Position numbers and translations under genes: made by a program
Assembly: GCA_964636085.1 (NCBI GenBank)
Contig: CAZWPQ010000020.1
Coordinates: forward strand, 7,029 to 36,786
DNA: 29,758 nucleotides
Direction of reading: 5' to 3'
From: an uncultured Nitrososphaerota archaeon
GTDB lineage: Archaea; Asgardarchaeota; Njordarchaeia; Njordarchaeales; Panguiarchaeaceae
Notes under the pieces: model-generated
The model's database searches: none
The model's input: only the letters and a program-made list of their open reading frames with translations
Told to the model about the DNA's origin: nothing
Part shown: piece after piece, positions 1,562 through 28,294 of the stretch
Layout of the letters: every line of letters begins with the position of its first letter
How positions within the stretch are numbered: position 1 is the stretch's first letter

Positions 1562-1987
1562 TTGGAGATGAACCTTACGAGGAAAGAGTCGATGGTGCTT
1601 AGGTTTATTTATGAGGTAACAAAGGATATACCATTGGTAACCGTGAAACAAGTTGCTGAGTTCTTGAGGATTTCTCCTCCCTCGGCCTTTGAGTTGCTGA
1701 ATAGATTGGCTGAAGCTAAGGGATTACTCTTACGCATAGAGAGGAAAGGATATATACTTACTAGGTCAGGAAGGGCTGTGGCCCAGAAACTTGTGGCGGT
1801 TCACAGGATCTTGGAGACTGTGTTTTGTAGGATATTTGGGATGGATGCTGATTGTGCATGTGAGGTTGCCTCCCATGTTGATTTTATAATCGATATTGAC
1901 CACGCATTAAGGGCCATGAAGATGCTTGGAAATCCTGAGGTTTGTCCCCATAACAAGAGGATTCCGATAGGTGAGGAGATTGATTAG
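1562..1987 (+). CDS. DtxR/MntR-family metal-dependent transcriptional repressor (no FeoA/SH3 domain)
   Basis: wHTH (VKQVAEFLRISPPSAFELLNRL), LTRSGR, HRILE dimerisation motif, C-terminal CPHNKRIP. Start TTG 1562 or ATG 1568. Confidence 0.92.
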   Translation: MEMNLTRKESMVLRFIYEVTKDIPLVTVKQVAEFLRISPPSAFELLNRLAEAKGLLLRIERKGYILTRSGRAVAQKLVAVHRILETVFCRIFGMDADCACEVASHVDFIIDIDHALRAMKMLGNPEVCPHNKRIPIGEEID

Positions 1988-3011
1988 ATATGTGTTGATT
2001 ATATTTATCATGTCTATGGTGTTGGCCAATGGGGGGCATGTCGGATTGACTGGCTCATTCGTTATTAATATTGTCTGTACTCTCGAGCCCTATGCGGGTA
2101 TTGCCGAATATATTGGTGGGGGTCTAGTCAATGTCTCGTTTATAATACCTGAGGGTGCGAGTCCTCATGAATACTCGCTATCTCCAAGTGATTTGTCTAA
2201 GATAGAGAAGGCGGATATCCTTATTATGGTTAATAGTGAGTTTTTGTCGATTGAGTCAGAGATAAGGGAGAGCTTTAGTGATAAGACATATGTGGATTTT
2301 CCTGATTATGAGAAATATAATATTACGATATTGCCTGCTCCAGGAATAGAGCAAAATTATCATGGTTATTGGCTCTATCCCGATAACGCTATAGCTATTG
2401 CCAAGGCAATTTTTGAGGCATTGGCAAGTATCGATCCGACACACAGAGAGATCTTTGAGGCGAACCTTGCAAGGTTTATAGATAAGGTCAGCAATCTGAA
2501 AGACCTCATGATTAGTGTATCTATGGAGAGGGGGCTCTATGGCATTGGTGTATTATTAGCTGTGCCTGCAGTGGCGTATGTAGCTTATTCATTCGGTTTT
2601 TCCCCAAAGGCTATGATACTTAAGGCGCCGGGGAGCTTTGTATCTGGGTCTGAGCTAGTAAGGATAGAGGAGGAGATAGAGAATGGCGAGATATCTATGG
2701 CTCTATGCCCAGAGAGTCTGAAGAATGCGAAGCCTGGGCAGATTATGGAAGAGATAAGGAGGGAGACAAATGTATCCGTAGCCTATGTCAGGGTTTTTTC
2801 TCTACATGGCCTTAATGACTATATATCGTTACTCTCATATAATCTGGCGGTGATTTCAAATATCGGTCTCCAGAATACCTCTAGTAGATTTATGACCGAG
2901 ACCTATATATACCTCCTTATAGGGTTTACATTGGCTACGGCGGTCGCTATTTTGGAATCAATAATCATATTTAGGTTTAGAAAAAAAGCGGAGGAGATAT
3001 TGTATGAGTAA
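1971..3011 (+). CDS. znuA: Metal ABC transporter substrate-binding protein (ZnuA/TroA family), C-terminally membrane anchored
   Basis: Signal peptide, IIPEGASPHEY, NYHGYWL, DP..REIFEAN motifs; C-terminal TM helix followed by RFRKK; operon context. Confidence 0.88.
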   Translation: MRRLIRYVLIIFIMSMVLANGGHVGLTGSFVINIVCTLEPYAGIAEYIGGGLVNVSFIIPEGASPHEYSLSPSDLSKIEKADILIMVNSEFLSIESEIRESFSDKTYVDFPDYEKYNITILPAPGIEQNYHGYWLYPDNAIAIAKAIFEALASIDPTHREIFEANLARFIDKVSNLKDLMISVSMERGLYGIGVLLAVPAVAYVAYSFGFSPKAMILKAPGSFVSGSELVRIEEEIENGEISMALCPESLKNAKPGQIMEEIRRETNVSVAYVRVFSLHGLNDYISLLSYNLAVISNIGLQNTSSRFMTETYIYLLIGFTLATAVAILESIIIFRFRKKAEEILYE

Positions 3012-3792
3012 GCCATTGCTAAGAGTAAGGGGGCTTAGTGCTGGGTATGACAAGGAGCCAGTGATAAGAGATATATCATTTGATGTATATGAGTCCGAGA
3101 TCTGTGTAATAATGGGCCCGAATGGTGCTGGAAAATCGACATTGCTAAGATCGATTATAGGTCTGGCAAGAGTCTATAGTGGAGAGATTGAGGTCTGTGG
3201 ATACAGGATCCCGCATGATATAAAAAACATTAGAAGGATTATAGGGTATGTTCCCCAGAGAGAATATGTCTCCCAGAACATACCAGTAACAACAAAAGAT
3301 GTTGTTCTTTCTGGCATAACACTTAGAAAAGGTCCATTATACATACCGACTAGGAAAGATATGTATACCGTACGCAGAGTCCTGGAGAGAGTAGGTATAG
3401 GGAGAGAGCTGTGGTTCAAAAAATTTAATGAGCTCTCGGGCGGACAACAACAGAAGGTGCTATTGGCAAGGGCTCTTGTGTTTCATCCTCGAATACTTTT
3501 ATTGGATGAGCCATTCTCGGGCATAGACATAAAGTCTCTAAGGGAAATAATTGATTTTTTGGTCGAAATAAAGAAGTCGGAGAAACTAGGAATAGTAATT
3601 GTACTTCATGAAATTAGTGAGATTTTGGCCCATGTTGATCGAATAATGCTCCTTAACAAGAGAATGGTAGCATGTGGCGATGTACTATCGGTATTGACAC
3701 CTGAAAACCTAAAGCAGACATACGGCGTGGACGTTGATGTTATTCCATACGGCGATAAGTGTCTACCTATCATAGGTGATAGACATGCCTAG
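3004..3792 (+). CDS. znuC: Metal ABC transporter ATP-binding protein
   Basis: Walker A GPNGAGKST, IGYVPQ, LSGGQQQK signature, LLLDEPFSGID, H-loop VLHE. Confidence 0.93.
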   Translation: MSKPLLRVRGLSAGYDKEPVIRDISFDVYESEICVIMGPNGAGKSTLLRSIIGLARVYSGEIEVCGYRIPHDIKNIRRIIGYVPQREYVSQNIPVTTKDVVLSGITLRKGPLYIPTRKDMYTVRRVLERVGIGRELWFKKFNELSGGQQQKVLLARALVFHPRILLLDEPFSGIDIKSLREIIDFLVEIKKSEKLGIVIVLHEISEILAHVDRIMLLNKRMVACGDVLSVLTPENLKQTYGVDVDVIPYGDKCLPIIGDRHA

Positions 3793-4612
3793 TATTATAG
3801 GTCTCCTCCAGAATCCATTCATACTCAGGGCCATACTAGCAGTAGTACTAATAAGCGTGCTAGCGGCCACAGCAGGTAGTTTTACTATTTTCAGAGGCCT
3901 ATCATTTTTAGTTGCTGGAATAGCCCATGCAGCATTCGCGGGAGCGGCCCTAGCATTAGTGTTGTATCAATATGGTTGTCTCAGCGGACTCGACCCATTA
4001 TTTGTGGCGCTCTTGTTTGGAGTTATGATGGCTGTGGTTATTGGCCTTACTGAGAGGCCTGAGAGTATATCGAAGATAGAGGTGTCTATAGGCGTAGCTT
4101 TTGCATTTTCGATGAGTCTAGCAATACTATTTATTTCACTAATGAAGGAGTACTCTATTGAGGCCTGGGCCCTGATTCTGGGCGATATATTGCTATTGAC
4201 GATTAATGATATAATCATATTGACCATAATAACGATTATTGACACATTCATTTTCGTGTTGTTTATGAGGATTTTTGTATTTCTATCCTTTGACCCAGAG
4301 GGTCTTAGGGCTATTGGTGTTAATGTCGATGTTTACCACATATTGATGCTTGTGCTGATAGCAAGTGCGACTGTTGTTCTCTTAAAGGGGGTTGGAGTCA
4401 TATTAGTATATGCGGTTCTTGTTGTTCCATCAGCAATAGCAAACAAGATTGCTAATGATGTTTTGGGGGTGATGAAGTTATCGTTTGTAATAGCATTGTT
4501 ATCGGGAGTATCTGGTGTGTTTATATCAACAGTTTTAGACATTGTTCCTAGTGCGCTTATAGGTCTAATATTAGTGTTTATATACTTTATTGTTTCTGCT
4601 CTGAAAAGATGA
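3785..4612 (+). CDS. znuB: Metal ABC transporter permease (ABC-3/ZnuB family)
   Basis: AGIAHAAFAG, ILGDIL, SFDPEG, GVILVYAVLVVP motifs; many TM helices. ATG 3785 (GGTGA upstream) preferred over track start 3776. Confidence 0.92.
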   Translation: MPSIIGLLQNPFILRAILAVVLISVLAATAGSFTIFRGLSFLVAGIAHAAFAGAALALVLYQYGCLSGLDPLFVALLFGVMMAVVIGLTERPESISKIEVSIGVAFAFSMSLAILFISLMKEYSIEAWALILGDILLLTINDIIILTIITIIDTFIFVLFMRIFVFLSFDPEGLRAIGVNVDVYHILMLVLIASATVVLLKGVGVILVYAVLVVPSAIANKIANDVLGVMKLSFVIALLSGVSGVFISTVLDIVPSALIGLILVFIYFIVSALKR

Positions 4613-4694: not shown

Positions 4695-6053
4695 ATGTCT
4701 TCAAGAAAAAAATTCTCTTGTGGCAATGTGATGCCAGATTATAAGGTAATGGCGATTCTCATCTTGATGTTTATGTCTGCGATGGGATATACTATAATAA
4801 AATTTGTGGATGCGCAACAATCTGAGAGTTTTCCAGAAATAAAAATAACTGCCCCATATAATCCTCCCCCAAGGCCTCACAAAGACGGCGAAGTTATTGT
4901 TGGAAGAGAGTCATTCACTATAAGGGTCTATATAACCTTCAAGTGTAATGCTAGCAAAGTGGAGATAATTGGTGATGCCGAGGGCGTATGCATAGAACCC
5001 CCGAATACATCCGAAAGTTTCACACCAAGAGAAGTTGCAGGAAACCCAGATGCAGAGGCATATATTATTTCTCCTGATGGAAAGAGTGATGAAATCAAAG
5101 AACCAAAGCCCACGTTCACAACATATGAGAATAGGAGAGCAGTCTTATTCGTTTTACCTAATATATCCTCTGGATGGGTCTATGATGTTAGGTGGAGAAT
5201 GAGTGCGCCAGAAGAACTGCCGAAGGGTGCTGACCATATAAAAATTAGGCTATCTATACTGATAAAACTATACATCCCAGGGGAAACAGAGCCCCTCCCA
5301 GTTGGGCCATACTACAAAGAAATAGATGTCATTAAGCCCCCTATTATTAAGTATATAGTAATTACACTTCTTGTAGTTGCTGGCTTCGCCATTTTGGTTC
5401 TAGCTGGCTATTTGGGATTTTTCAGAATATTCTCAACAATGGATCTTGTCACGATAGCAATAATCTCGGCAATGCAGGCGATATGGGTACATATCATAGG
5501 TAGACTTCTAGTATTTCAAATAGTTGATAGAGTACCCCTTGCCTATAATTTTGCCGTTGCGGACTTCCCATATATACTACTCCTCATTACGGCCGTTATC
5601 TTGGTTAGGAAGCCCGGTACTGTGAGCTTAACACTCTTTGTATATAACCTATCAAGCCAGATAATGGGATTCTATCCCTTTAACCCAGCATGGTGGAGCT
5701 ATCCTATCAGCGAGGGGCTTGTTCCAGATCTATGGATCTTAGTCAGGGGCGACGCCATACTCACGGATAAAATCGCATTTTTTAGGAGGAATATCCCTCT
5801 AGAAGAGCTAGAGACGTATCCGTCAAATGTAATAATAAAGTATTTAGATGGGTTCATAATAGGCTTCTTTAGGGGTCTAACTATGCAATACCTTCTGCTT
5901 ACGGTATTTATACCGTATTTCTATAGGATAAGCTACAGCATGGGCTATGTGATATATTGGCTGGTTATTCCTTGGTCCATTGGTAATGCTATAGAAGGAA
6001 TAATCTCTATTCCTATTGCGGAGGAGATAAAGAAGTCAGCGGCTACCCTATAG
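4695..6053 (+). CDS. Membrane protein: signal/TM, beta-rich ectodomain and C-terminal ECF S-component-like domain
   Basis: N-terminal hydrophobic segment, ~180 aa soluble beta-rich region, then about 6-7 TM helices with TMDLVTIAIISA, AVILVRKPG and GLVPDL, resembling YkoE/MptD-type ECF S components. Start may be ATG 4731. Confidence 0.6.
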   Translation: MSSRKKFSCGNVMPDYKVMAILILMFMSAMGYTIIKFVDAQQSESFPEIKITAPYNPPPRPHKDGEVIVGRESFTIRVYITFKCNASKVEIIGDAEGVCIEPPNTSESFTPREVAGNPDAEAYIISPDGKSDEIKEPKPTFTTYENRRAVLFVLPNISSGWVYDVRWRMSAPEELPKGADHIKIRLSILIKLYIPGETEPLPVGPYYKEIDVIKPPIIKYIVITLLVVAGFAILVLAGYLGFFRIFSTMDLVTIAIISAMQAIWVHIIGRLLVFQIVDRVPLAYNFAVADFPYILLLITAVILVRKPGTVSLTLFVYNLSSQIMGFYPFNPAWWSYPISEGLVPDLWILVRGDAILTDKIAFFRRNIPLEELETYPSNVIIKYLDGFIIGFFRGLTMQYLLLTVFIPYFYRISYSMGYVIYWLVIPWSIGNAIEGIISIPIAEEIKKSAATL

Positions 6054-6058
6054 AATAT

Positions 6059-7429
6059 CTATATCTCTACCTCATTTTTCTTCTTTATTTTTGCTAGTGT
6101 CTTCTCCACCCTTTTTACTGCAACCTTTATATGTGGATCGGGCCTAAATATTTCTCTGATCTCTTCCTCGGTCAGATATTTCCTAATGGTATCATTACTT
6201 AGTACGAGCTCTATGAAGTTTCTTCCACTCTCATAGGCCTCCATGGCTATTCTCCTCACTAGTTCATGGGCATTCTGTCTTCCAAGCCCCCTCATAGCTA
6301 ATCTTGTTACCAGTATATCGGAATATATCATGCCGCCTGTAAATTTTATGTTTCTCTCTATGTTCTTTATGTTTATTTTCAGGTTCCTAAGGATTTTTAT
6401 CGCCCTAGATATTTGTTCGTCGACAAGCATAAATATTTCCGGGATAATTATTCTCTCAGATGCGCTATTTGTGAGATCCCTCTCATGCCACAAAACAATG
6501 TTTTCAAGAGCAGCAATAGCCAGCCCTCTTACGACTCGTGCAATAGAACATATATTTTCGGAGCTTATAGGGTTCCTTTTATGGGGCATTGCCGTAGATC
6601 CGACCTGGCTCGATAGAAATTGTTCCTCTAACTCACTTATCTCAGTTCTCTGTAGATTTCTGATTTCCGTGGCTAATTTTTCCAGCGATGAGGATATTAA
6701 TGACATAAGTAAGAAAATTTCGGCAAATCTATCCCTAGATATTATTTGGGTAGCGCTCTCATCAACCCCCAGCCCCAATTCCTCAAGCACTTCCCTCTCA
6801 ACAATCTCTCCGACCTCGCCTAGGCTACTATGGATACCTACAGAACCACTGATTTTACCAACAAATATTCTTTTTCGGGCATCATGTATCCTTTCTATGT
6901 GTCTAAGAAATTCATCGGCGAAAACAGCAAACTTTCTACCCAGCGTATATATAGATGCATGCATTCCATGAGTCCTAGCCACACATGGCAAATCTATGTA
7001 TCTGGATGCTAGTTCTCCTAGACACTTAATTAGGAGTTTTAATTTAGATTCGATATGATCAAGAGCCTCTCTGAGGATAAGCACCTTAGCGGTATCTCTC
7101 AGATCTGCGGAGGTAAGTCCAATATGGATGTACTCTCCTAGCTCCCCCATGTGTCTAGCCAAAACATTTATAAGAGCCATTATGTCATGTCTTGTTATTT
7201 TTTCCTCCTCAAATATATCGTTCACATCAAGTTTTTCTATCGCCCTCCTCAGAGCCCCAGAGGTACCATCTGGTACTATTCCATGTTTTTCCTGTTTTTC
7301 AACAACAGCCAGTTCTACCATGGCCATTGTTCTATAGAAGTTCTCCACAGAGAATATTCTCCTTAACTCCTCACAGCCGTATCTATATTCAATTGGATGC
7401 ACTTTCCTAGGGTCAATCATGGACATCAT
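6059..7429 (-). CDS. purB: Adenylosuccinate lyase
   Basis: TRHD, HIGLTSAD, ARTHGMHA, GSTAMPHKRNP fumarase-superfamily signature, WHERDLTNS; ATGA overlap with purA stop (7426-7429). Confidence 0.96.
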   Translation of the reverse strand: MMSMIDPRKVHPIEYRYGCEELRRIFSVENFYRTMAMVELAVVEKQEKHGIVPDGTSGALRRAIEKLDVNDIFEEEKITRHDIMALINVLARHMGELGEYIHIGLTSADLRDTAKVLILREALDHIESKLKLLIKCLGELASRYIDLPCVARTHGMHASIYTLGRKFAVFADEFLRHIERIHDARKRIFVGKISGSVGIHSSLGEVGEIVEREVLEELGLGVDESATQIISRDRFAEIFLLMSLISSSLEKLATEIRNLQRTEISELEEQFLSSQVGSTAMPHKRNPISSENICSIARVVRGLAIAALENIVLWHERDLTNSASERIIIPEIFMLVDEQISRAIKILRNLKINIKNIERNIKFTGGMIYSDILVTRLAMRGLGRQNAHELVRRIAMEAYESGRNFIELVLSNDTIRKYLTEEEIREIFRPDPHIKVAVKRVEKTLAKIKKKNEVEI

Positions 7430-8430
7430 CTTCTATCTATTGTGTCCTTAACGTCTGGCCCAGTCCTTATAATCGTTACTGGAACTCCCAGTGTTCTTTC
7501 TATTTCCAATACGAATTCTTTGGCTTCTTGCGTAAGTTCGCTCCAGTCTCTTACATGAGCTACCTTAGGGTATAAGACATCCAGTTTCGTAAGTGCTATC
7601 TGGGTCGCACCATTAAGTCTCACCGCCCTTTTTGCTAACTCAAAGTTAAATGGCGCAGCTCTCCTCGGGCGACCAGTCACAGTTCCATACTCCACCCATC
7701 CTCTCTCTTTAATTTCTTCTATTGTCAATTCATTTGGCAAAGGTCCAGTACCAACACGAGTAACATATGATTTAAACACAACAATAACATCGTCAACATC
7801 TGTGGGTCCTATACCAACATCGCTACATATCGAGCCAGCAGTAACATCCTTTGATGTTACATAGGGATACGTACCATGAAACAGTGATAAAAATGTACCT
7901 TGAGTACCCTCAACAATTACTGTTTTTCTCGAATCTATAGCCCCCCATATCTCGGCCGGCACATCCGTAATAAAATCCTTAAGTAAATCTAGCTCAGCTG
8001 CAAGTCTAAGTCTTCTTTTAACCCTATCAACATTGGCCTCTCCACATCCAGTAAGAGTACTTCCAATTTTCTCCCTAAGGTGTGTAGATTGCCGTTCCCT
8101 ATCAATATGAATATTCTCGATGATCCCCGTATTTTTATCTACACCCACTCTATCTCTATCAACACTATATCTATCAATCTCTCCTAATAGGACATCGGGA
8201 TTAACCAAAACCCCCGGACCGATAAGTAGTCTACACTCCTTATTTATAAGGCCCGATGGGATTTGACGCAACTTATATTCCTGTCCATTATAAACAACAG
8301 TATGGCCAGCATTAGGGCCAACACCACCCCGCACACAAATTGATGGGTTGTCATTGATCGACAAATAGCCAACAACCCCGCCTTTGCCCTCATCACCAAA
8401 GAAGCCACCCACAACGACTATAACCACCAT
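7426..8430 (-). CDS. purA: Adenylosuccinate synthetase, short archaeal form
   Basis: GDEGKG P-loop, NAGHT, EGTQG, GTYPYVTS, TVTGRPRR, TKLD; 334 aa; GGTGA RBS upstream. Confidence 0.97.
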   Translation of the reverse strand: MVVIVVVGGFFGDEGKGGVVGYLSINDNPSICVRGGVGPNAGHTVVYNGQEYKLRQIPSGLINKECRLLIGPGVLVNPDVLLGEIDRYSVDRDRVGVDKNTGIIENIHIDRERQSTHLREKIGSTLTGCGEANVDRVKRRLRLAAELDLLKDFITDVPAEIWGAIDSRKTVIVEGTQGTFLSLFHGTYPYVTSKDVTAGSICSDVGIGPTDVDDVIVVFKSYVTRVGTGPLPNELTIEEIKERGWVEYGTVTGRPRRAAPFNFELAKRAVRLNGATQIALTKLDVLYPKVAHVRDWSELTQEAKEFVLEIERTLGVPVTIIRTGPDVKDTIDRR

Positions 8431-8796
8431 GAAGATTCACCCGCACATATAATATATGCTATTATGTTTCTTAAAATTGTACAACAATTACAGTTTCTCG
8501 GATTTTTCCTTTTCAAATGAACAACATTTCTATCTAGATTCTCTAAAATGGTCTCAGAAACTTGTAGTACGTCACAGAGAAATCAATGATTTGCAGTAAC
8601 ATTGAAGGAAATTGATCATTATCGATCAGTGTATTACATTAGAATATAAATATACTATGGCGTGTCTTTTGATCGTTCCCTTATACATCTACAAGCTGTC
8701 GGAGGGCTCTATAAATCATTTATGATATATAGTTGCCTAGCGGTGGCTATAATTTGGGATATGTAGCATATATATAAGGTTTTTTCTGCTGATAAT

Positions 8797-9975
8797 ATGG
8801 GGTGTCATTTTGGTGTAGCCTTGATGGAAACAGAAGAAACTCCTAGTGGTGCATATTGTCCCAGTTGTGGTAGATATATAGGTACATATGATGTATGTCC
8901 ATATTGTGGTGCTAGGGTGAGATATAGACTGAAGATGAAAATATTGTTTATAATTGCGATCCTTCTATCAAGTCTTGGTATGTTCTCCCTCTATTATGCC
9001 TCTAGGCATTCGGAAACTCCCATCGTCTATATAAAGGACATAACTTCTGAAATGAACTATGCGCGTGTGAGGATAGTTGGGTATGCCTATACCTCGGCCA
9101 CCTATGACGAGGTTCAGGGTAGGCTGTACTTTAGTATTGTTGATGAGAACTGGACGTATAATGAGGAATTCAAGACCCAAACAATAATGGTCTACGCGTA
9201 TACTCCAACGAGTAGAGAGTTGATAGAGCAGAAAAGGGCTCCGGTCTCGGGGGATAAGATAGAGATTGTTGGGACTCTCAGGATAAGGGATTCAATATCA
9301 TTGATTATAAACGATGCAGATGACCTCGTCATTAGTAGGGATCCACCGAAGGACTATAGCTTGGAGATAATACACTATAATTGGAAGAAGCTAAAAGGGC
9401 AACCCGTAAGGGTAACGGGATGGATAGTTGACCTCACAAACTATACGACATTTATGACTGGCAATATTAAGGACTATGCATATCCCGACTTTGAACTGAA
9501 CATATATATACCAGAGATATCTATGAGAATTGGGCAAATGCCAGATGTATTTGTCGGAGACAAAATAGAGATCATTGGGAACCTATGGGAGTACAGGGGA
9601 GAGCCAGAGATAGTGCCCTGGAACGGCACCTGTATAAACATTGTGAATAAATTGTCAGTAACAAATCTTAGCGTTATTCTTAGCAATATAGCTGAATATG
9701 CAGAACAAGGCCGTATTGTGATGGTCAATGTAACTATTGTTGGCGTTGACAAAAACTACAGTAATAGGATATACATATATGATGAGTCGATAAGCCCTAT
9801 ATCGGCAATGACGCTCTGGATTGATTTCTCAGTGTGGGATGAATTGAATGATTCCATGAAAGAAGCCCTAAATACTCTCTACAATCATATACTATTAGTG
9901 GGTGAATGTAAAAAATTCAGTGGCAAATATGAGATCGCTGTACATCAGGATGATTGGATTCGTAAAGTGTGGTAG
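8797..9975 (+). CDS. Zn-ribbon + single TM + three tandem extracellular OB-fold domains
   Basis: CPSC-x9-CPYC, TM aa ~49-68, three repeats ending GDKIEIVGTL, GDKIEIIGNLWEYRGEPEIVP and LLVGECKKFSGKYEIAV (OB-fold pattern seen in extracellular nucleases); 7 N-x-S/T sequons after the TM. Start may be ATG 8824. Confidence 0.75.
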   Translation: MGCHFGVALMETEETPSGAYCPSCGRYIGTYDVCPYCGARVRYRLKMKILFIIAILLSSLGMFSLYYASRHSETPIVYIKDITSEMNYARVRIVGYAYTSATYDEVQGRLYFSIVDENWTYNEEFKTQTIMVYAYTPTSRELIEQKRAPVSGDKIEIVGTLRIRDSISLIINDADDLVISRDPPKDYSLEIIHYNWKKLKGQPVRVTGWIVDLTNYTTFMTGNIKDYAYPDFELNIYIPEISMRIGQMPDVFVGDKIEIIGNLWEYRGEPEIVPWNGTCINIVNKLSVTNLSVILSNIAEYAEQGRIVMVNVTIVGVDKNYSNRIYIYDESISPISAMTLWIDFSVWDELNDSMKEALNTLYNHILLVGECKKFSGKYEIAVHQDDWIRKVW

Positions 9976-9984
9976 GGATTCATA

Positions 9985-11298
9985 ATGGCGATACTAGCGT
10001 TATTTATCTATATAATTCTTGGAGTATTGGTCGGTAGTTTAATATCGATTCTCCCTTCATTGCACATATATAATGTAGCACCCATTTTTATTCTGCTTGC
10101 ACCAGAATTAGGAATAGCCCCCGACATAATGTTGTTTTTCTTACTGGGCAATGTGATAGGCTTCGCTGTTATGAACTCTATTTCAACAATCTTCTTTTCC
10201 GCACCTGATGACACCACATTCTTAGTACTAATGCCAAGCCAAATAATGCTCCTCAATGGAAGGGGTTTCGAGGTGGCTCTCCTCATGGGTACTGGTTGCT
10301 TGATAGGCGCAATGATAATGGTTGCAATATCACCAATAATCATGTATATTCTTCCAAAAATGATGAGCCTTGTAATGCCTAACCTACACTGGATCCTAGC
10401 TATGTTCCTGTTCTATATACTCCTGTCAGAGTTCCCTAAGGATATAGGTGTGGGGACTAATAGGTGGGAACGATTTAAGAACGGATGGAAAAACCTAGCG
10501 GGAGGATATCTCACATTTGCATTAGCGTCGATTCTAGGCTTCATAATAATGTATGGAAACATAATGCCAGTAGAGGCTGCCTACTTTGGAATGTTGCCAG
10601 CCTTAATAGGAGTATTTGCGATTCCAAGTCTAATAATGAATATAATATCCAGAACAGAGGTTCCGAAGCAAAGGATACAGCGAAGTGTTGATGCTACTAT
10701 TGTAGACATTGTGAAGGGAGGGCTGGCTGGTTTTTCAGGAGGATTTTTTGCCGCTATAGTCCCCGCTTTAACGGGAGGCATGGGTTCTGTGATTGCTGGA
10801 CAAGCAACTGGACAAAGGGAAGAGTCACAATTCATAATTTCGATGGGCGCCAGCAGATTTGTATATTATGTGGGTGCATTTTTCCTACTATTTGTACCAA
10901 GATACACAGTAGTTAGGGGTGGCCTTGCAAACTTGGCCGCAACGCTCTACATACCCCAAGAATATCATGAGTTCTACATAGCCGTCGCTGGAATAGCGAT
11001 AGGGTGTGTTGTTGCCTTCCTCCTTTTGGTGGTTGTTTCATACTTACTGGCTAAGGTTATTCATAAGGTTAGATATGATTATGTCTCAATAGCCATTATT
11101 GTAATTTTAGCCCTAATTACTTTTGCAACTACGGGGGTTATAGGTATAATCGTCATGATTGTAGCCACGGGTATAGGCCTAATTCCTTTGATCACGGGCT
11201 CTAGAAGACTGAATTGCATTGCGATAATCATATTTCCATTGATGCTCGGTATGGCTGGTTTATCTGGCGAGTTTGCATCCTTGATAGGTCTTAGGTGA
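9985..11298 (+). CDS. TctA-family (DUF112, archaeal type) polytopic membrane protein
   Basis: About 12 TM helices; ISILPSLHIYN and STIFFSAPDD motifs, second-half AAIVPALTGG, LIGVFAIPSL, as in tripartite tricarboxylate transporter TctA-like proteins. No tctB/tctC nearby. Confidence 0.82.
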   Translation: MAILALFIYIILGVLVGSLISILPSLHIYNVAPIFILLAPELGIAPDIMLFFLLGNVIGFAVMNSISTIFFSAPDDTTFLVLMPSQIMLLNGRGFEVALLMGTGCLIGAMIMVAISPIIMYILPKMMSLVMPNLHWILAMFLFYILLSEFPKDIGVGTNRWERFKNGWKNLAGGYLTFALASILGFIIMYGNIMPVEAAYFGMLPALIGVFAIPSLIMNIISRTEVPKQRIQRSVDATIVDIVKGGLAGFSGGFFAAIVPALTGGMGSVIAGQATGQREESQFIISMGASRFVYYVGAFFLLFVPRYTVVRGGLANLAATLYIPQEYHEFYIAVAGIAIGCVVAFLLLVVVSYLLAKVIHKVRYDYVSIAIIVILALITFATTGVIGIIVMIVATGIGLIPLITGSRRLNCIAIIIFPLMLGMAGLSGEFASLIGLR

Positions 11299-11304
11299 AT
11301 ATTT

Positions 11305-12366
11305 ATGAAGGGGGTTACACATTATTTCTTTGCAGCTGCGTTGGTCTCTCTAATACCATCAGTAATGGCAATGGCGGTATATGAAAGATCATTCATCATA
11401 GTACTGGGGGCGATTGCTGGAATCTTGCCTGATTATATCGATTTTAAGATCGTACGTTTCTTATGGCCTATTGACATAGAGATAATGCCAGATTGGCCTA
11501 TTCCTGATGCACAAAAAATTGCTGAACAGGTATCAAAAATAATTGATGACGTGTGGGAGGAAAAGAAAACAATAACAGTTCAGTTTCATACGATAAAGAC
11601 TGGCCCAAACACTTGGAGGCAATGGTTCATCTATCTTGACCCCGACAAGCAAATTGTAAAAGTCGGCGTTGGAGCTATACGTACATTTGGGGGCCGCATA
11701 TATAGATCTACCATAGACGACATACCTAAGGAAAAAAGAGTTGGAGAAGCGCGGTTTGGAGCACCATTAATCTATGGATATAAGGACAGGACTATCAGAA
11801 TGGAAATACTTAGTGGCCCTACAGTATCATTCGTGCCGACAGAAGAAGGAGTCGAGGTCGTCTTCCTTCCATGGCATAGATATATGAGCCATAGTATAAC
11901 CCTTGGAGCCCTCTTGTCAGCAATAGTGATGATGATAGTATTGGCCCTTGGATGTACATTCTTAAGATCGCTCATATATTTTGCCGTATTCTTTGTTGGT
12001 TTTTCATCTCATATACTTGCAGATCAGTTTGGACATATGGGCTCGAATTTATTCTGGCCCTTTACAAAAAAGAGGGTTGAGGGGTTCAAGATAACGGAGT
12101 CTGCAGATCCCTACGCCAATTTTGGGCTGTTCTGGACATCCCTTGTCATTCTCTTCTGGCGAATGAATATGTCGATAGAACCAAGGCCAATAGAGTTGCC
12201 TTGGACATATACCCTAATGGGCATTGAGATAAGTCTATTTCTAGTGGCATACTTAATAATAGTACCCTGGTTAGCCCTCATCCTTTTAAGAATACAATTC
12301 TGGAGGCCCACTGGCGACCCATACCTAAGGGACATGCTTATGGAAGAAACAGCAGAATTGATGTGA
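11305..12366 (+). CDS. YdjM/DUF457-family membrane-bound metal-dependent hydrolase with a large soluble insertion
   Basis: MKGVTH, GILPDYID, WHRYMSHS, SHILADQF, LFWPF motifs; ~135 aa hydrophilic insert between the PDxxD and HRxxSHS motifs. Confidence 0.82.
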   Translation: MKGVTHYFFAAALVSLIPSVMAMAVYERSFIIVLGAIAGILPDYIDFKIVRFLWPIDIEIMPDWPIPDAQKIAEQVSKIIDDVWEEKKTITVQFHTIKTGPNTWRQWFIYLDPDKQIVKVGVGAIRTFGGRIYRSTIDDIPKEKRVGEARFGAPLIYGYKDRTIRMEILSGPTVSFVPTEEGVEVVFLPWHRYMSHSITLGALLSAIVMMIVLALGCTFLRSLIYFAVFFVGFSSHILADQFGHMGSNLFWPFTKKRVEGFKITESADPYANFGLFWTSLVILFWRMNMSIEPRPIELPWTYTLMGIEISLFLVAYLIIVPWLALILLRIQFWRPTGDPYLRDMLMEETAELM

Positions 12367-12541: not shown

Positions 12542-15172
12542 ATGAGGAAATACCTTCTCAGTCTTTTCTCGATCTTCGTTATAGCATGTGCGGCATTTAT
12601 CAATGTAAGCTACTCAAAAAATATCAAACCTAACAACACATACAATGTTACTACTGGCCATTCTAGCGAATGTAAAAAATTCACTAAGTCAACGATGACC
12701 GTCCCATACGAAATGAAGGTTCTTATTGAGGATAAGTACGCATACTATAGCTACAGCTCGGGGCGTCTTACTTACCTCGTGGAGTTCCTCCAAGAGGACT
12801 ACGGCTTCACAGTAACGGAAACATCAGTCACATCGATCAGCTATAATAAGAACAACATAAGCAACTATTGGCTCTACATTCTCCCCAACCCCAGATATGG
12901 GAATCTCACGGCTACTGAGCGAGAAGCTGTACGATATTTCGTTAATAACTCTCGTGGATATGCTTGGATCTTAGGCTACAGCAACTACAATAGCTACCTA
13001 AACAACTATACTCTCAACAATATCTCAGAACCTTTTGGCATACACTTTATATGGGGTAGCGCTACAGACCCTGACAATAATACTGGTGCTGATTGGAGGC
13101 CACTCGTATATGTGTGGGCAAATACAACCCCAGCACAATATCTAAGTGAAAACGGAACATACGTACTTCACCACTGGAGCCCAACTGCAGTAGATTTTCC
13201 TGATCTTTCCTTAAATGGGACTTGGGTTACTTTCTATAGACTAGGTATTGGTGATGATAATACATCTGTTGATAGTGTAGCTACTGGCCCCAACGTAACC
13301 TATAATGCAATAGCAATAACGGAATCTGGAGGAATAATGTTCGCTAGCGGATGTTCTGCCTTTATATCAGACTATGATTTCTATGACTATGATAATGAGA
13401 AATTCATCTATAGGCTTGTGGAATACGGCTTAAGGAGAGATCTAGCAATTACTAAGCTTGAAGCACCCACAACAGATATGTTGGCTGGGCAGACGTTCTA
13501 TGTCAATGTGACTGTAATAAATAATGCTGATAACTCGATCAGCAATGTGCATGTTGGCCTAGAGTTTAGTGGTGCCATTGAGCTGAAGAATACATCTAAT
13601 ATATATAATATATCATCCCTAAACCCGAGCGAGACTGCTGATGTATCATTTGAGTTTGTAGTTACTGGTACTAGTGAAGTATATATGGAGGTAAAGGTTT
13701 GGAGTGATAACTCATCTGTCATTGGTTATCAAAAGCGTGTTGAATTCAATACTAGGGGACTAATTCTAAGCTCTAATGTGGAACCAGAATTTATAGTATT
13801 ATCAGACTTCAACTATACATATCTTCACGTGTATATAGAGAACCCTGCAGAGAATCCCATCGCTACTGATGTAAATGTAAGCATCATGCTCCCTAGCGAG
13901 CTCACAACAGATAACGATACCTTCTATCACTTCGAACAAATAATTAATGGCACTACTGAACACCTCATATTGATTATAGAGGCTCTAGAAGCTGGTAGAT
14001 ATAGAATCAATGTAAGCCTTATCAGTGATAATATGGGTACAGCATTCACTCATACATATGTCATTGTATACTCAAGGCCGTTTATACTGTTTGATCAGGG
14101 GCATGGACAGTACTATGACGCCGATAGAATGACTGGATTTGTTGATCTACTTAAACAATATGGAGAGCTGTACCTAAACAATGACACGATAACGAAGGAT
14201 GAGCTAGGTAATGCTTCTCTCATAATAATTACAAATCCATCAGAAGATGATTTGCTTAGTGACGCTGAGATACAGCTTATCAAGAATTATATCGATAATG
14301 GTGGAAAGCTAATTATAATGGGTACATGGTTTAAATACATCGCGGATACAGCCGCCAACTTAAATAACATTACAATGGACTATGGAATTCGCTTCGAGGT
14401 TGGGGAGATAGCAGATAATATAAGCAATTATGGCGAGTACTATCTACCCATCTTGTATAATCTAGCTAAGCACCCATTATGTTCAGATGTAGATCATGTA
14501 TTCACTCCTGGCACAACATATCTATCACTTTCACGCGACGCCAAGGCTGTGGTGAAAGGAAATCCAACCAGCTATGGACTCGAGAATTATTCAACCCATA
14601 GTGGCGTGGACAATGGGGCTCTAGTAGCTGTAGCTACAGTTGAGTTGGACGGAGGAGGTAAAATTGTTGCTTTGGGAGGCGGTGGGATACTAGCTGATTC
14701 CTATTATGGAACTTCCGTATCGCCAATAGATGATAATATGCAGTTTGCTAGGAATTTGCTGATGTGGATTCTAGGGGATACGATTCCTCCAACAGTCACA
14801 ATAACTTGTGTAAATCTTGATACATCCGTTCTTGTTACGGTCACGGTAGTTGATAACTTAGCAATAGATAATGTAAATATCTCTGATAATGATACGATAA
14901 TCAAATCTGAAACTGGAATAACATCTCATCAATATGTTTATGTCTTCGATATAACTGAAGCTGGAATCCACGTTATAAGGGTTATCGCTATCGACTATGC
15001 GGGTCTAGCTGGCTTTGCCGAAGAGACTGTGGAGGTGGTTTCTCCACCAGCTACCGAGACTACAACCCCAACTGAGAAAGGAGTCCCTATGTGGCTTGTG
15101 GGAACGGCGGCTGCTGTTGCTGTGGGTATTGTAGTAATAGTAATGATCTTGCTTAGGAAAAAGAAAGAGTAG
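12542..15172 (+). CDS. Cell-surface glycoprotein: two DUF4350/GldG(GIFT)-like domains, CARDB/Ig-like domains, Thr-rich linker, C-terminal TM anchor
   Basis: Signal peptide; LYILPNP...LTATEREAVRYFVNN and ILFDQGHGQYY...LIIITNP...EIQLIKNYIDNGGKLIIMG; CARDB-like DLAITKL...VNVTVINN; DTIPPTVTI...DYAGL; ATETTTPT, TM, RKKKE; many sequons. Confidence 0.75.
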   Translation: MRKYLLSLFSIFVIACAAFINVSYSKNIKPNNTYNVTTGHSSECKKFTKSTMTVPYEMKVLIEDKYAYYSYSSGRLTYLVEFLQEDYGFTVTETSVTSISYNKNNISNYWLYILPNPRYGNLTATEREAVRYFVNNSRGYAWILGYSNYNSYLNNYTLNNISEPFGIHFIWGSATDPDNNTGADWRPLVYVWANTTPAQYLSENGTYVLHHWSPTAVDFPDLSLNGTWVTFYRLGIGDDNTSVDSVATGPNVTYNAIAITESGGIMFASGCSAFISDYDFYDYDNEKFIYRLVEYGLRRDLAITKLEAPTTDMLAGQTFYVNVTVINNADNSISNVHVGLEFSGAIELKNTSNIYNISSLNPSETADVSFEFVVTGTSEVYMEVKVWSDNSSVIGYQKRVEFNTRGLILSSNVEPEFIVLSDFNYTYLHVYIENPAENPIATDVNVSIMLPSELTTDNDTFYHFEQIINGTTEHLILIIEALEAGRYRINVSLISDNMGTAFTHTYVIVYSRPFILFDQGHGQYYDADRMTGFVDLLKQYGELYLNNDTITKDELGNASLIIITNPSEDDLLSDAEIQLIKNYIDNGGKLIIMGTWFKYIADTAANLNNITMDYGIRFEVGEIADNISNYGEYYLPILYNLAKHPLCSDVDHVFTPGTTYLSLSRDAKAVVKGNPTSYGLENYSTHSGVDNGALVAVATVELDGGGKIVALGGGGILADSYYGTSVSPIDDNMQFARNLLMWILGDTIPPTVTITCVNLDTSVLVTVTVVDNLAIDNVNISDNDTIIKSETGITSHQYVYVFDITEAGIHVIRVIAIDYAGLAGFAEETVEVVSPPATETTTPTEKGVPMWLVGTAAAVAVGIVVIVMILLRKKKE

Positions 15173-18752: not shown

Positions 18753-21380
18753 ATGGCAGAGATTTTAATAAGGGAGATTGGAAGAGACGATATTCCTGAT
18801 ATTATTGAGGCCCTTAAGACTGCCAAGTATGATTTTCCTTGGGGGTATCTCTATAATGTATATAGGATAGATAGGGAAGAAGTATGGGCTAGTTTAGGTG
18901 GATATGATGACTATAGAACGCTTGTTGCCGAGTACGATGGACGTGTTGTTGCTTTATTAGAGTATTATCCTCATTGGGAGGAGAAAAATAATCTTTATAT
19001 TGAATTTATCTTGACGCATAGAGATTATCGTGGGCTTGGCATAGGGACTATGCTCATAAAGCATTGTCTTAAGTTAGCGATCGATAAAAAGTTTGATATG
19101 CTTAGTCTCCACACGTGGGCAACTAATAGAGCTGTTAGGCTGTATCGTAGGACTGGTTTCTGCTGGATGCCTGGGACATATGTCTATATGAAGAATTTCG
19201 CTCCTAGGCTTTTCAAATATGTGAAAATGAAGAAAATTTTTAGAGTCCCTGAAAATCTCATCGATTGCCTAGCTGGGCCTCCTAGAGAAGAGTTTATAAA
19301 GGGTCATAGAGCTTGGAGATATCTATGGAGAATAGATGATTCATGTGTTGAGGCCCTATTTGATTCAAATACTGGTCTCCTATTAGGGTTGAGATGGAGT
19401 GATGAATATATATTGCTTGAACCCCCCGGAGATGTTGAATATCTAGCCGGCTCCAATACATCGGTGAATATTAGGACATCTATGCCGATTTCTGCATACA
19501 TTGATGAGAAAATATACAATCTGAAGCCCCAGGAGAATAGGTTATGTTTGGAGGCTAAGAAAGATAATAGGTTTCTAATAGGGCAGTTCGAGTTTGGATA
19601 TAGACTAAAGGTTCTTGATACCATTAATATCGAGGTTGAACCAGATTACCTAATAAGTCCATGTGTTTTTAGGATAATGTTATCTAATAATAGTGACTCT
19701 ACTGTATCTGGAAATCTTGTGGTTGTTCCTAGTTGCGGCCTGGAGATATATGTGAAGGAGAAAAATATAGAGTTGTCGCCTAAGGGATTTAGAGAGGTAG
19801 ACGCCTATGCATTGGGTGAGGGGAAATGTAAAATATATTTTGGTGGGGTAGAGAAGAATATCGTGGTCTTCAAGAAGGACTACATAGACAGGGATAAATG
19901 CAGGGTTACTTCACGACACTGGATTCTTGATACGAAGGAGGAGATGATCAAATGTAATGAGATCAATGACTTGGTGATATGGTGGATGTCCATTCTTAAT
20001 AACGAGAGGCTAAAATTTCATAACCCTATGGGCGATGGATTTATATCTAAGACCAAATCTGCAACTATAAAACTTACCCCAACGTTTACTGGCAATGAGT
20101 TATCCTTAGAGTTTGACATCACAGCGAATAGAGATATTGATGATTACCTAATTATGCAGTTTTGGCTATGGATGGAAAAACCCCATGAAGACAGGTTCTT
20201 TATCGTTCCTATTGGTGACTATTTTGTAAGGGAAAAACCAGTATACCCGTTCTTCCCAATGGGATACGAGTTCATCCGGGAGGAGTTAGTGCATAGAATT
20301 TTTGGTTATGACATTGATAGAAGGCGTATCCTTATTGAGTTCAGCCCAGACGGCCTTTTTACGATGCGTAATCCACATAACATAAGGATATACTATAAAG
20401 TTCGACTAAAGGCAGGTGATAAAATAAAGAAAAGGCTATGTTTTAGGCTTAGTAACCAAGAACGATGGATCAGTGGTAAGCCGATAAAGAGGGCTATCGA
20501 AACATTTATTATCGGGGATAGCCTTTATGTTAAAAATAATTGGCATAGAGCATTAGACATAACTATAAGGCATAATGGAGAAGACATTAAGGTAAAACTC
20601 GATCCCAAGGAGGAAAAGAAAATCATCCCCAATTTATGTGGGCTCGGAATTTTAAGTGTTGACATCGGCATTGCTGGATATTTTGAGAAAAGAACAATAC
20701 CATATACAGTCCCCACTAGGGTCAATTGGAGCGACAAACGTGCAGAGTACGGTAATATATCCATTACACTCGATGAACATGGCGGATCAATAAGAAGCCT
20801 AGTAATCAACGGGAAGGAAATTCTTAAGTGGAGCGACTCACCATTCTACACACCCTACCAGATTGCTAAGACCTACGGAGGATGCGCTCTTCTTATCCGT
20901 GTTGACGGGGAGGATAAAGAATTATATCTCAAAGAATGGAGATATGTCGAGAAGGGAAAATTTAGGATTAATATTGGTGACATTGAGGTTTATAGGCAAA
21001 CATACTTTCTAGATAAAACAACAATTATGGAGGAAGTAACAGTAAGAAATATTGGTAGTAAACCGAGGAAGATATCCGCTACATACATGATATTCCTCTC
21101 AAAACGCATAGGCAGAGCTGGGACGAGAGGCCTTACATCTGGCGGGGAGGACGTGTTTTCTATCTCGTCCTCGAATCATGGATGGGTAGAAATTGGCGAT
21201 GTAAAAATCGGGGTACTTCTTATTGCCTCAAAAAATCAGGGAGTTTTGATTAATCAACTGATCGGCGAAAATGGCTCGATTTCTTCACTATGGGACTGGA
21301 AAATTAAGCCAAATGAAGAAAAAACTGCCAGAATTATAATTACCGAAAACATTAAGGCCATCGAAAAATTTAGATCCTAG
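18753..21380 (+). CDS. Large GNAT-family N-acetyltransferase with long beta-rich C-terminal region
   Basis: Acetyl-CoA motif THRDYRGLGIGT and LHTWATNRAVRLYRRTGF within aa 1-150; the remaining ~720 aa are beta-rich and unassigned. Confidence 0.8.
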   Translation: MAEILIREIGRDDIPDIIEALKTAKYDFPWGYLYNVYRIDREEVWASLGGYDDYRTLVAEYDGRVVALLEYYPHWEEKNNLYIEFILTHRDYRGLGIGTMLIKHCLKLAIDKKFDMLSLHTWATNRAVRLYRRTGFCWMPGTYVYMKNFAPRLFKYVKMKKIFRVPENLIDCLAGPPREEFIKGHRAWRYLWRIDDSCVEALFDSNTGLLLGLRWSDEYILLEPPGDVEYLAGSNTSVNIRTSMPISAYIDEKIYNLKPQENRLCLEAKKDNRFLIGQFEFGYRLKVLDTINIEVEPDYLISPCVFRIMLSNNSDSTVSGNLVVVPSCGLEIYVKEKNIELSPKGFREVDAYALGEGKCKIYFGGVEKNIVVFKKDYIDRDKCRVTSRHWILDTKEEMIKCNEINDLVIWWMSILNNERLKFHNPMGDGFISKTKSATIKLTPTFTGNELSLEFDITANRDIDDYLIMQFWLWMEKPHEDRFFIVPIGDYFVREKPVYPFFPMGYEFIREELVHRIFGYDIDRRRILIEFSPDGLFTMRNPHNIRIYYKVRLKAGDKIKKRLCFRLSNQERWISGKPIKRAIETFIIGDSLYVKNNWHRALDITIRHNGEDIKVKLDPKEEKKIIPNLCGLGILSVDIGIAGYFEKRTIPYTVPTRVNWSDKRAEYGNISITLDEHGGSIRSLVINGKEILKWSDSPFYTPYQIAKTYGGCALLIRVDGEDKELYLKEWRYVEKGKFRINIGDIEVYRQTYFLDKTTIMEEVTVRNIGSKPRKISATYMIFLSKRIGRAGTRGLTSGGEDVFSISSSNHGWVEIGDVKIGVLLIASKNQGVLINQLIGENGSISSLWDWKIKPNEEKTARIIITENIKAIEKFRS

Positions 21381-21430: not shown

Positions 21431-21599
21431 ATAGAGTCTCATCCTAGAGGAATCCTTTTTAAATAATATTATTCTAATTATGTATATAGATAATAAGTAG
21501 CATCTACAGGAATATAAATTCAGCCTGAATGAAGATTTATTGATGGAGGGTCTATTTTGATAAAAAATTTTCAACTAGTTGCATTATTGGGTGGGAGCA

Positions 21600-27980: not shown

Positions 27981-28294
27981 CCGAGACCTTTATGCCTCCA
28001 AGCCCACATCTAGTACCACGAAAAAAGCTAATATTATTTGAAAATATGTGTTGGAGAACCCGCTTTATCCTCATTGGGCTAGCATCACCATATGAACTCG
28101 AGTATAGAGCATTCAGAAGACTCACTAGAGTCCCTACTCTTCCTGACCAGACTTTTGTGCCCATACTAGGGGGCATATGAGGGCAATAAAACTATTACTT
28201 TTGTGGCTGTCCTTTATTGACATCTTTTTTAAGAAAAATTCCCTATTTTTATATATGTGTCAAAGATTTTTTAGCTGCTTGTATGGGGGGCAAA

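Follow-up and report, generated by a model that had tools for sequence, protein, structure and literature searches.

A candidate nucleic-acid uptake operon of OB-fold, TctA-like and YdjM-type proteins in a Njordarchaeota genome

Three neighbouring genes in the genome of an uncultured Asgard archaeon of the Njordarchaeota encode a membrane-anchored OB-fold protein, a TctA-like protein and a YdjM-type protein. Do the products form one machine, and is DNA what it brings into the cell? To our knowledge, the passage of DNA across the membrane in archaeal transformation is covered only by the genetic parts list of a single methanogen. The genes lie in a stretch of 29,758 nucleotides, referred to here as the window, for which an initial annotation had proposed a DNA-uptake operon working along the lines of bacterial ComEC. 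The host genome is 83% complete; this applies to every genome-wide absence reported below, and absence is therefore not proven.

Gene layout and the three products

The trio consists of three + strand ORFs with intergenic gaps of 9 and 6 nt, and the ORF coordinates confirm the co-oriented, tightly spaced arrangement first described. Positions below are those of the window.

8768..8777, +: TATA-like A/T-rich box, about 20–30 nt 5′ of the gene 1 ATG (sequence reading)
8797..9975, +: gene 1, membrane-anchored OB-fold protein, 392 aa
8857–8907, +: gene 1 Zn ribbon (C21/C24/C34/C37), predicted cytoplasmic
8935–9009, +: gene 1 TM helix, residues 47–71
9010–9342, +: gene 1 OB1, predicted external
9343–9666, +: gene 1 OB2, predicted external
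9667–9972, +: gene 1 OB3, predicted external
9985..11298, +: gene 2, TctA-family (PF01970) polytopic membrane protein, 437 aa
11293..11298, +: AGGTGA, Shine-Dalgarno-like, overlapping the TctA stop codon and 6 nt 5′ of the YdjM ATG
11305..12366, +: gene 3, YdjM/DUF457-family membrane protein, 353 aa
11467–11874, +: gene 3 alpha/beta insert of 135 residues between TM2 and TM3 (residues 55–190)

The A/T-rich box is a candidate archaeal promoter, and it is possible that the operon mRNA is leaderless or has a short leader. The AGGTGA motif at the TctA stop codon suggests that translation of TctA and YdjM may be coupled.

The AlphaFold2 model of gene 1 contains three beta-barrel modules (mean pLDDT 91.3). 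Searched against the PDB, it retrieves as top matches exclusively DNA-binding proteins with tandem OB folds, namely p204 HIN (E 5e-11), Oxytricha TEBP, Teb1, RPA70, RADX and LEF-3, a uniformity that partly mirrors which structures are solved. PF01336/PF13742 are present in distant homologs. Of 27 homologs, at least 90% retain the CxxC-x9-CxxC motif of the Zn ribbon, and seven OB1 residues (R92, R162, R164, R181, Y103, F112 and Y135) are kept in at least 93% of homologs. Seven N-X-S/T sequons occur in gene 1, where 2.4 would be expected (shuffling P = 0.0035), and this excess together with the topology analysis makes it very probable that the OB domains are external, as originally proposed. In nearly all homologs these ectodomains are net acidic (−2 to −11 per OB), which counts against DNA capture, and OB folds are also known to bind sugars and proteins.

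Gene 2 matches the Pfam TctA profile PF01970 almost end to end (residues 8–412 on profile positions 2–422 of 423; E 5.5e-32, 111 bits). Neither TctB nor TctC is encoded in the operon. In the 83%-complete host genome no TctC was found, and no TctB above the cut-off, the nearest being a sub-threshold match of 28.2 bits on another contig; the earlier statement that this TctA lacks its usual partners is supported. Gene 2 is a member of a divergent TctA subfamily whose partners are OB proteins and which occurs without TctB/TctC. When profiles of TctA and YdjM were searched against the sequences of solved structures, no relative of either was returned. TctA belongs to an ion-transporter superfamily (TCDB, TRAP structures) in which the members with solved structures carry small anions by an elevator mechanism, an awkward basis for the threading of a polymer.

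Gene 3 scores 56.7 bits against the Pfam YdjM profile PF04307 (cut-off 29) and has six helices. Its conserved His/Asp cluster (H6, D43, D46, H191, H196, H236 and D240) is kept, along with R192 and S197, in 35–36 of 36 homologs. The insert was searched with phmmer against 1.84 billion representatives and was found almost exclusively in YdjM-type proteins of 300–400 aa, where it occupies the equivalent position; it forms 79 clusters at 50% identity, almost only from this subfamily, and a protein-atlas search returned nothing beyond YdjM clusters, with low scores. Foldseek gave weak matches of the insert to CusF and RMI, both of which we take to be OB-like barrels; these were not significant.

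The His/Asp cluster and the insert lie on the same side of the membrane, which is K/R-rich and sequon-poor. As charge bias and sequon density favour this placement, the metal site and insert probably face the cytoplasm, with the conserved site at the membrane–cytoplasm interface. The initial annotation had likened YdjM to the metallo-nuclease of ComEC; an outward-acting nuclease of that kind is not supported, with the metal site on the K/R-rich side and no nuclease fold matched. YdjM is grouped in the Pfam clan of phospholipase C and P1 nuclease. A nuclease-like, P1-nuclease or PLC fold was not recovered for YdjM by Foldseek on the PDB (best E 0.09) or by a wide VIA-align search (Z at most 6.2, to helical hairpins), a result that does not exclude a relation. 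The family has been described as “possibly a phospholipase” (PMC11442139), and the literature found includes no characterised YdjM-family member and no report of nuclease activity for the family.

Complex prediction for TctA and YdjM returned a score of 0.73 in all three runs, with the best control at 0.00; 58 of 80 solved complexes score that high, as do 2 of 110 mismatched pairs. Contacts agree between runs to at least 93%, and the pLDDT of the partners is at least 79. In the predicted interface, TctA residues 125–171 face TM1, TM2 and TM5 of YdjM; the TctA loop 148–171 is, like the YdjM insert, predicted to be cytoplasmic. The modelling thus supports binding between TctA and YdjM.

Linkage and distribution of the trio

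Co-occurrence elsewhere had been set beforehand as a refutation test of the proposal, and the three genes do recur together, both as neighbours and at genome level. The comparison covered the 80 closest loci of this TctA subfamily, counted at species level. Of the 68 loci that could be evaluated upstream, 54 have a same-strand OB gene there; of the 67 evaluable downstream, 31 have YdjM of this type. Fully adjacent trios are found at 17 of the 57 loci evaluable on both sides. Since the arrangement recurs across phyla, it is far beyond chance. The association extends to genomes in which the genes are apart: YdjM is encoded elsewhere in all five sampled Chloroflexota with OB–TctA and no adjacent YdjM, and both YdjM and the OB protein are encoded elsewhere in the five sampled genomes with a solitary TctA. 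Together, these are 10 of 10 sampled bacterial genomes with unlinked genes that retain YdjM.

Of 400 Asgard genomes, 11 encode TctA of this type, and the genomes that encode the corresponding YdjM type are precisely those 11. The loci that were read have the order OB–TctA–YdjM, and one fragmented genome carries the trio over two contigs. Among high-quality Asgard genomes the module is present in only 1 of 90, and it is therefore accessory.

In the trees of both TctA and YdjM, one branch divides the archaeal from the bacterial sequences (SH-aLRT 99 for TctA, 97 for YdjM), pointing to a common history of the two proteins. The nearest TctA matches outside the Njord group come from Anaerolineae, at 40–44% identity. 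Recent horizontal transfer from Chloroflexota was considered and dropped, the archaeal rows falling on one side in both trees.

Relation to known systems

In Methanococcus maripaludis JJ, the adjacent genes MMJJ_13020 (a single-TM OB protein) and MMJJ_13030 (TctA-like, 11 TM) are each essential for natural transformation, with complementation, and their mutants lose plasmid transformation completely; the TctA homolog of Methanoculleus thermophilus, SAMN04488571_104187, is also essential (Fonseca et al., 2023; PMC10133366). The initial annotation had tentatively named a TctA-family gene as necessary for transformation in methanogens, which is right and applies to the adjacent OB gene too. The 2023 authors put forward, as a hypothesis, that TctA acts as the DNA channel; their account has no YdjM partner (PMC10133366), and the literature searched makes no mention of YdjM as a partner of the OB–TctA pair.

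The features of an MMJJ_13020/MMJJ_13030-type pair, namely a TctA-family protein, an adjacent single-TM OB protein and no TctB/TctC found, are all present at the Asgard locus. The two genes are co-oriented and in the same order, and both hosts are archaea without ComEC (here in an 83%-complete genome); the match rests on Pfam family, architecture and gene order rather than on alignment. In addition to the pair, the Asgard locus has a fixed third gene, of the insert-bearing YdjM type, which the 2023 account does not mention. The methanogen screen also yielded MMJJ_16440, a secreted SNase-type nuclease (PMC10133366). No SNase-type nuclease was found in the host genome (83% complete), which counts against the uptake model.

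The Salmonella citrate system TctABC shares the PF01970 large subunit and a three-part layout of external binder, large permease and second membrane protein. It differs in that the external part of the Asgard system is a membrane-anchored three-OB array instead of TctC, while a YdjM-type protein with a metal site stands in the place of the second membrane protein, TctB not being found above threshold. A classical TTT set, in which TctC and TctB are encoded with TctA, is thus not what this locus holds.

Bacterial ComEC combines an OB fold, a competence channel domain and a metallo-beta-lactamase nuclease. The comparison stands as a functional analogy in that the trio, too, brings together an OB fold, a polytopic membrane protein and a hydrolase-like domain of metal-dependent type, but it breaks down at the inward YdjM site, the missing nuclease match and the acidic OB domains. 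The Asgard parts are three separate proteins without homology to ComEC, and the hydrolase-like part is not MBL: none of the three matches PF03772 or metallo-beta-lactamase, and the host genome (83% complete) gave no match to ComEC/PF03772. The nuclease domain of ComEC lies outside the membrane, whereas the hydrolase-like site of the trio is predicted to be cytoplasmic, which argues against a plain copy of the ComEC scheme.

E. coli YdjM/YbcI and an SOS-regulated YdjM-motif protein of S. aureus share PF04307 and the conserved membrane-embedded His/Asp motifs with gene 3, and are linked to DNA biology only via LexA regulation. The Asgard copy differs from them in its 135-residue insert and in its association, which is with TctA and OB genes and not with an SOS regulon.

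Proposed working and alternative explanations

The analysis shows the gene structure, the folds, the co-occurrence and a predicted contact, and from these we propose how the trio may work. The three-OB array, glycosylated and held at the surface by one helix with its Zn ribbon inside, would capture extracellular nucleic acid. The TctA-like protein, without TctB/TctC, would provide the membrane passage or carrier, as the 2023 genetics suggest. YdjM would be a fixed subunit on TctA via TM1, TM2 and TM5, its His/Asp site and insert turned inward, and could either process the incoming nucleic-acid end or strand or act as a TctB-like scaffold.

We lean, with some reserve, towards this reading, in which the trio is one membrane complex whose first two parts are of the same kind as the M. 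maripaludis transformation pair, and the OB / TctA-like / YdjM set is an old module, patchy in archaea and bacteria, of which the locus is the Njordarchaeota copy. By analogy with that pair, the trio is a good candidate for DNA import. The original view of a DNA-uptake operon therefore survives in part: co-occurrence and the methanogen genetics speak for it, as does the failure to find ComEC or TctC in the 83%-complete genome, which leaves no rival import machinery in sight, while an outward YdjM nuclease is not supported. A strictly co-inherited third subunit that is predicted to bind TctA provides a concrete, testable model of the complex. As the module occurs in Asgard archaea, in Thermoplasmatota and in many phyla of bacteria, it may represent a widespread and so far unstudied route of nucleic-acid uptake, which would matter for horizontal gene transfer in the closest lineage to the eukaryotes. 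A bolder version, in which the trio is a complete ComEC-independent DNA translocon that pre-dates the archaea/bacteria split, with YdjM processing DNA at the cytoplasmic mouth of TctA, seems doubtful to us; if true, archaeal competence would have its missing third component in YdjM, and many bacteria would have a second DNA-import route.

Uptake might instead serve nutrition, external DNA, RNA or their fragments being captured, oligonucleotides or nucleotides imported, and mononucleotides released for salvage at the inward YdjM site. The predicted cytoplasmic position of a hydrolase site attached to the permease would suit such a system, and a carrier-type TctA suits short substrates more than long DNA on general knowledge of the superfamily. 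The module is also found in many non-model anaerobes of organic-rich sediments, and the operon is divergent to purA/purB (AMP branch of purine synthesis), but this neighbourhood is not kept in the closest relative. Transformation by plasmids, which the M. maripaludis mutants lost, requires the entry of long DNA, and for YdjM no nuclease fold was matched and no nuclease activity is known; we regard a feeding role as unlikely.

A lower probability still is given to a solute transporter with no part in nucleic-acid uptake, its substrate being perhaps an oligosaccharide or an anionic metabolite, in which the OB protein replaces TctC, YdjM replaces TctB and the methanogen defect is indirect. TctA is a bona fide transporter family, an external binder, a permease and a second membrane protein mirror TctCAB, and no TctB or TctC was found to fill the roles of small subunit and binder. 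The acidic ectodomains would fit as well, as would the scaffold-like contact of YdjM with TctA through TM helices. An indirect defect is difficult to reconcile with transformation losses that are complete and complementable for both the OB and the TctA gene, and that extend to TctA in a second genus; moreover, every top structural match of the OB array is a DNA binder (in part a matter of what is solved), and an invariant cluster of seven His/Asp residues exceeds the needs of a scaffold.

An envelope or lipid role, with YdjM as an inner-leaflet phospholipase or phosphatase acting on a lipid or lipid-linked carrier, TctA flipping or carrying the product and the OB protein binding a surface glycan, would draw on the “possibly a phospholipase” description (PMC11442139), the interfacial YdjM site and an LPG-synthase-type gene beside the module in one Chloroflexota clade, but it is highly improbable, as it has no conserved lipid-enzyme neighbour (fourth families occur in at most 11 of the closest 80 loci) and leaves the transformation genetics unexplained.

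Beyond the trio, no fourth conserved family occurs in more than 11 of the closest 80 loci, and the loci that have one are confined to single clades. The 876-aa CARDB/GIFT protein encoded downstream of the Asgard operon was rejected as a fourth partner, since the closest relative has an unrelated 1080-aa protein as the neighbour. Among the clade-specific neighbours are the LPG-synthase-type gene that adjoins the module in the one Chloroflexota clade and, as a side hint in favour of uptake, at 7 loci of Anaerolineales, a secreted-type Lamin-tail + PLD-like protein encoded downstream of it.

Layout and conservation of the gene trio

The OB, TctA-like and YdjM genes form a compact cluster with the following features (window positions).

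8797-12366, + strand: three-gene operon with ORFs of 392, 437 and 353 aa, namely P0001 (OB protein, 8797-9975), P0002 (TctA-like protein, 9985-11298) and P0003 (YdjM protein, 11305-12366), separated by gaps of 9 and 6 nt
About 25 nt 5' of the gene 1 ATG: A/T-rich TATA-like box, read from the sequence
Overlapping the stop codon of gene 2, 6 nt upstream of the gene 3 ATG: AGGTGA motif, read from the sequence

The trio is kept, with different flanks, in a close relative whose OB protein shares 55% identity, and the OB-TctA-YdjM order is preserved, its genes overlapping, in one bacterial contig. When GTDB species representatives were scanned for relatives of the P0002 TctA, 513 came up; the best 80 loci were scored as six-frame ORFs with HMMs built from our own alignments. 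Within these best 80 of 513, 54 of the 68 evaluable loci have a co-oriented OB gene upstream of TctA (at most 300 nt away in 47), and 31 of 67 have a YdjM gene of the P0003 type downstream (adjacent in 25). Fully adjacent trios were found in 17 of the 57 loci evaluable on both sides; the three genes thus co-occur elsewhere, against the refuting case named in the initial annotation. In loci from DHVE2/Aciduliprofundum and Thermoplasmata, three OB genes precede TctA and YdjM follows it; no fourth conserved family was found among the 80 loci examined.

Among 400 Asgard genomes, P0002-type TctA occurs in 11, spanning four families, and P0003-type YdjM in precisely the same 11. The Asgard loci that were read have the OB-TctA-YdjM order, divided across two contigs in one fragmented genome. 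Where a Chloroflexota locus has OB-TctA alone, one P0003-type YdjM is encoded at another site of the genome (5 of 5 genomes), and where TctA stands by itself, the genome has YdjM as well as the OB protein at other sites (5/5). Of the 90 high-quality Asgard genomes, a single one has the module, which is thus accessory. One branch parts archaea from bacteria both in the TctA tree (94 rows, support 99) and in the YdjM tree (57 rows, support 97), which argues for a shared deep history of the two proteins. Recent transfer from Anaerolineae was rejected on the same split, high identity being no evidence for it.

Component proteins and their predicted topology

P0001 has weak zinc-ribbon matches only and none above threshold in Pfam; it has 30 homologs, the distant members of which bear PF01336/PF13742 OB folds. 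The AlphaFold2 model (27-sequence input, mean pLDDT 91.3) shows a Zn ribbon and three beta-barrel modules, with a TM helix (residues 47-71) in between, and four cysteines are conserved in at least 90% of homologs. Its best Foldseek matches in the PDB are without exception tandem-OB nucleic-acid binders: p204 HIN (E 5e-11), with Oxytricha TEBP-alpha, Teb1, RPA70, RADX, LEF-3 and CST among the other top matches. Because a K/R cluster (RYRLKMK) immediately precedes the TM helix, the Zn ribbon is placed inside and the OB folds are very probably external to the cell. The excess of N-X-S/T sequons (7 observed against 2.4 expected, P = 0.0035) is consistent with a glycosylated archaeal ectodomain. 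Each OB domain has a net negative charge (-3 to -6, similarly in nearly all homologs), despite which OB1 retains four arginines and three aromatic residues.

P0002 matches the TctA family over its full length (PF01970, E 5.5e-32) and is the only such protein in the host assembly (2.41 Mb, 102 contigs, 83% complete). Judged by the source names of close homologs, the host belongs to Candidatus Njordarchaeota / Njordarchaeia within the Asgard archaea. In this 83%-complete genome neither TctC nor a ComEC competence domain was found, and TctB gave only a sub-threshold match (28 bits) on another contig.

P0003 matches YdjM (PF04307, 56.7 bits, cut-off 29), an uncharacterised family termed "possibly a phospholipase" and known to be under LexA control in E. 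coli and S. aureus (PMC11442139). Its model (pLDDT 89.5) shows six membrane helices, the second and third of which are separated by a 135-residue alpha/beta insert almost confined to this subfamily; fold searches gave no convincing relative (best Foldseek E 0.09; VIA-align matching helical hairpins with Z no higher than 6.2). Residues H6, D43, D46, H191, R192, H196, S197, H236 and D240 are conserved in 35-36 of 36 homologs and, as deduced from helix order, all lie on the insert side of the membrane. Short loops on this side carry on average 6.8 K+R, against 1.2 on the opposite side (36 homologs), and Njord-type homologs have 0.16 sequons per 100 aa in the insert, against 1.76 in the OB ectodomains. 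Given this loop bias and low sequon density, a cytoplasmic location is probable both for the putative metal site and for the insert. A second YdjM-family ORF of the host genome (G000:C76:3574-3942, L093; 160 aa) lacks the insert and gave no match (E up to 1e-3) to the insert-bearing YdjM, OB or TctA HMMs.

Predicted TctA–YdjM contact and proposed function of the trio

In complex prediction the TctA–YdjM pair reached 0.73 in each of three runs, and the best control 0.00; this mark is attained by 58 of 80 solved complexes as against 2 of 110 mismatched pairs. Contact agreement between runs was at least 93%, and partner pLDDT at least 79. The predicted interface sets TctA helix 125-148 and the invariant SE(F/W)PK loop (148-171) against TM1, TM2 and TM5 of YdjM, and the K/R-rich TctA loop would contact the D43/D46 side of YdjM, which matches the cytoplasmic side deduced separately for each of the two. 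The prediction supports binding of TctA to YdjM; a search of solved structures returned no similar complex.

Fonseca et al. (2023) screened transposon mutants of Methanococcus maripaludis for natural transformation, and deletion and complementation showed that it requires each of two adjoining genes, MMJJ_13020 (OB fold, one TM helix) and MMJJ_13030 (TctA-like, 11 TM); deletion of a TctA homolog also abolished transformation in Methanoculleus thermophilus, and TctA was proposed as the missing archaeal DNA transporter (PMC10133366). This agrees with the initial annotation, which named a TctA-family gene as necessary for natural transformation in methanogens. A YdjM or hydrolase partner goes unmentioned in that study (PMC10133366), and our literature search found no paper tying YdjM to TctA or OB proteins. 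We take the trio to be a single membrane complex of the same kind as the M. maripaludis pair, and YdjM to be a fixed, previously undescribed subunit of it. The proposed likeness to ComEC is useful but imperfect: the trio is not homologous to it, its parts are separate proteins, and the action of the YdjM metal site is probably intracellular.

We lean slightly towards DNA uptake as the best-supported function, since it is the sole one with genetics in a relative. A nucleic-acid feeding-type system and a function unrelated to nucleic acids are both live alternatives in view of the acidic OB surfaces and the ancestry of TctA, which we take to be elevator-type, within an ion-transporter superfamily. 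Downstream of YdjM, on the same strand, one Anaerolineales clade (L048:7163-10312, +, and six related loci) encodes a 1050-aa protein with Lamin-tail, DUF11 and PLD-like domains. This secreted-type protein may be a nuclease or phosphodiesterase added to the module there, and gives a weak hint towards nucleic acid.

Neighbouring genes

Divergent from the operon are purB (adenylosuccinate lyase) and purA (adenylosuccinate synthetase; together 6059-8430, -), a vicinity absent in the closest relative. A DtxR-type metal repressor and, after it, a ZnuA/ABC ATPase/ABC-3 permease metal-uptake operon (together 1562-4612, +) lie between two ORFs of about 450 aa without Pfam match at E 0.001 (2-1342, -; 4695-6053, +). 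A protein of 876 aa (12542-15172, +), anchored by a C-terminal TM segment and carrying CARDB and GIFT/ABC_transp_aux domains, begins 175 nt past the operon and is not kept beside the trio elsewhere. An 875-aa protein (18753-21380, +) begins with a GNAT acetyltransferase domain, and its long remainder has no assignment; in 11 Anaerolineae loci a GNAT gene also directly precedes the OB gene, probably by chance. A 2133-aa protein rich in Big_7/Big_3/Ig-like repeats (21579-27980, +) is followed by an FG-GAP beta-propeller protein (28217-29758, +, continuing past the window end).

OB proteins of the P0001 family also exist apart from TctA, as a bacterial contig carries two tandem paralogs (L006:6001-8893 and L007), then a PKD-repeat protein, with no TctA nearby; the same contig holds an ECF sigma/anti-sigma pair.
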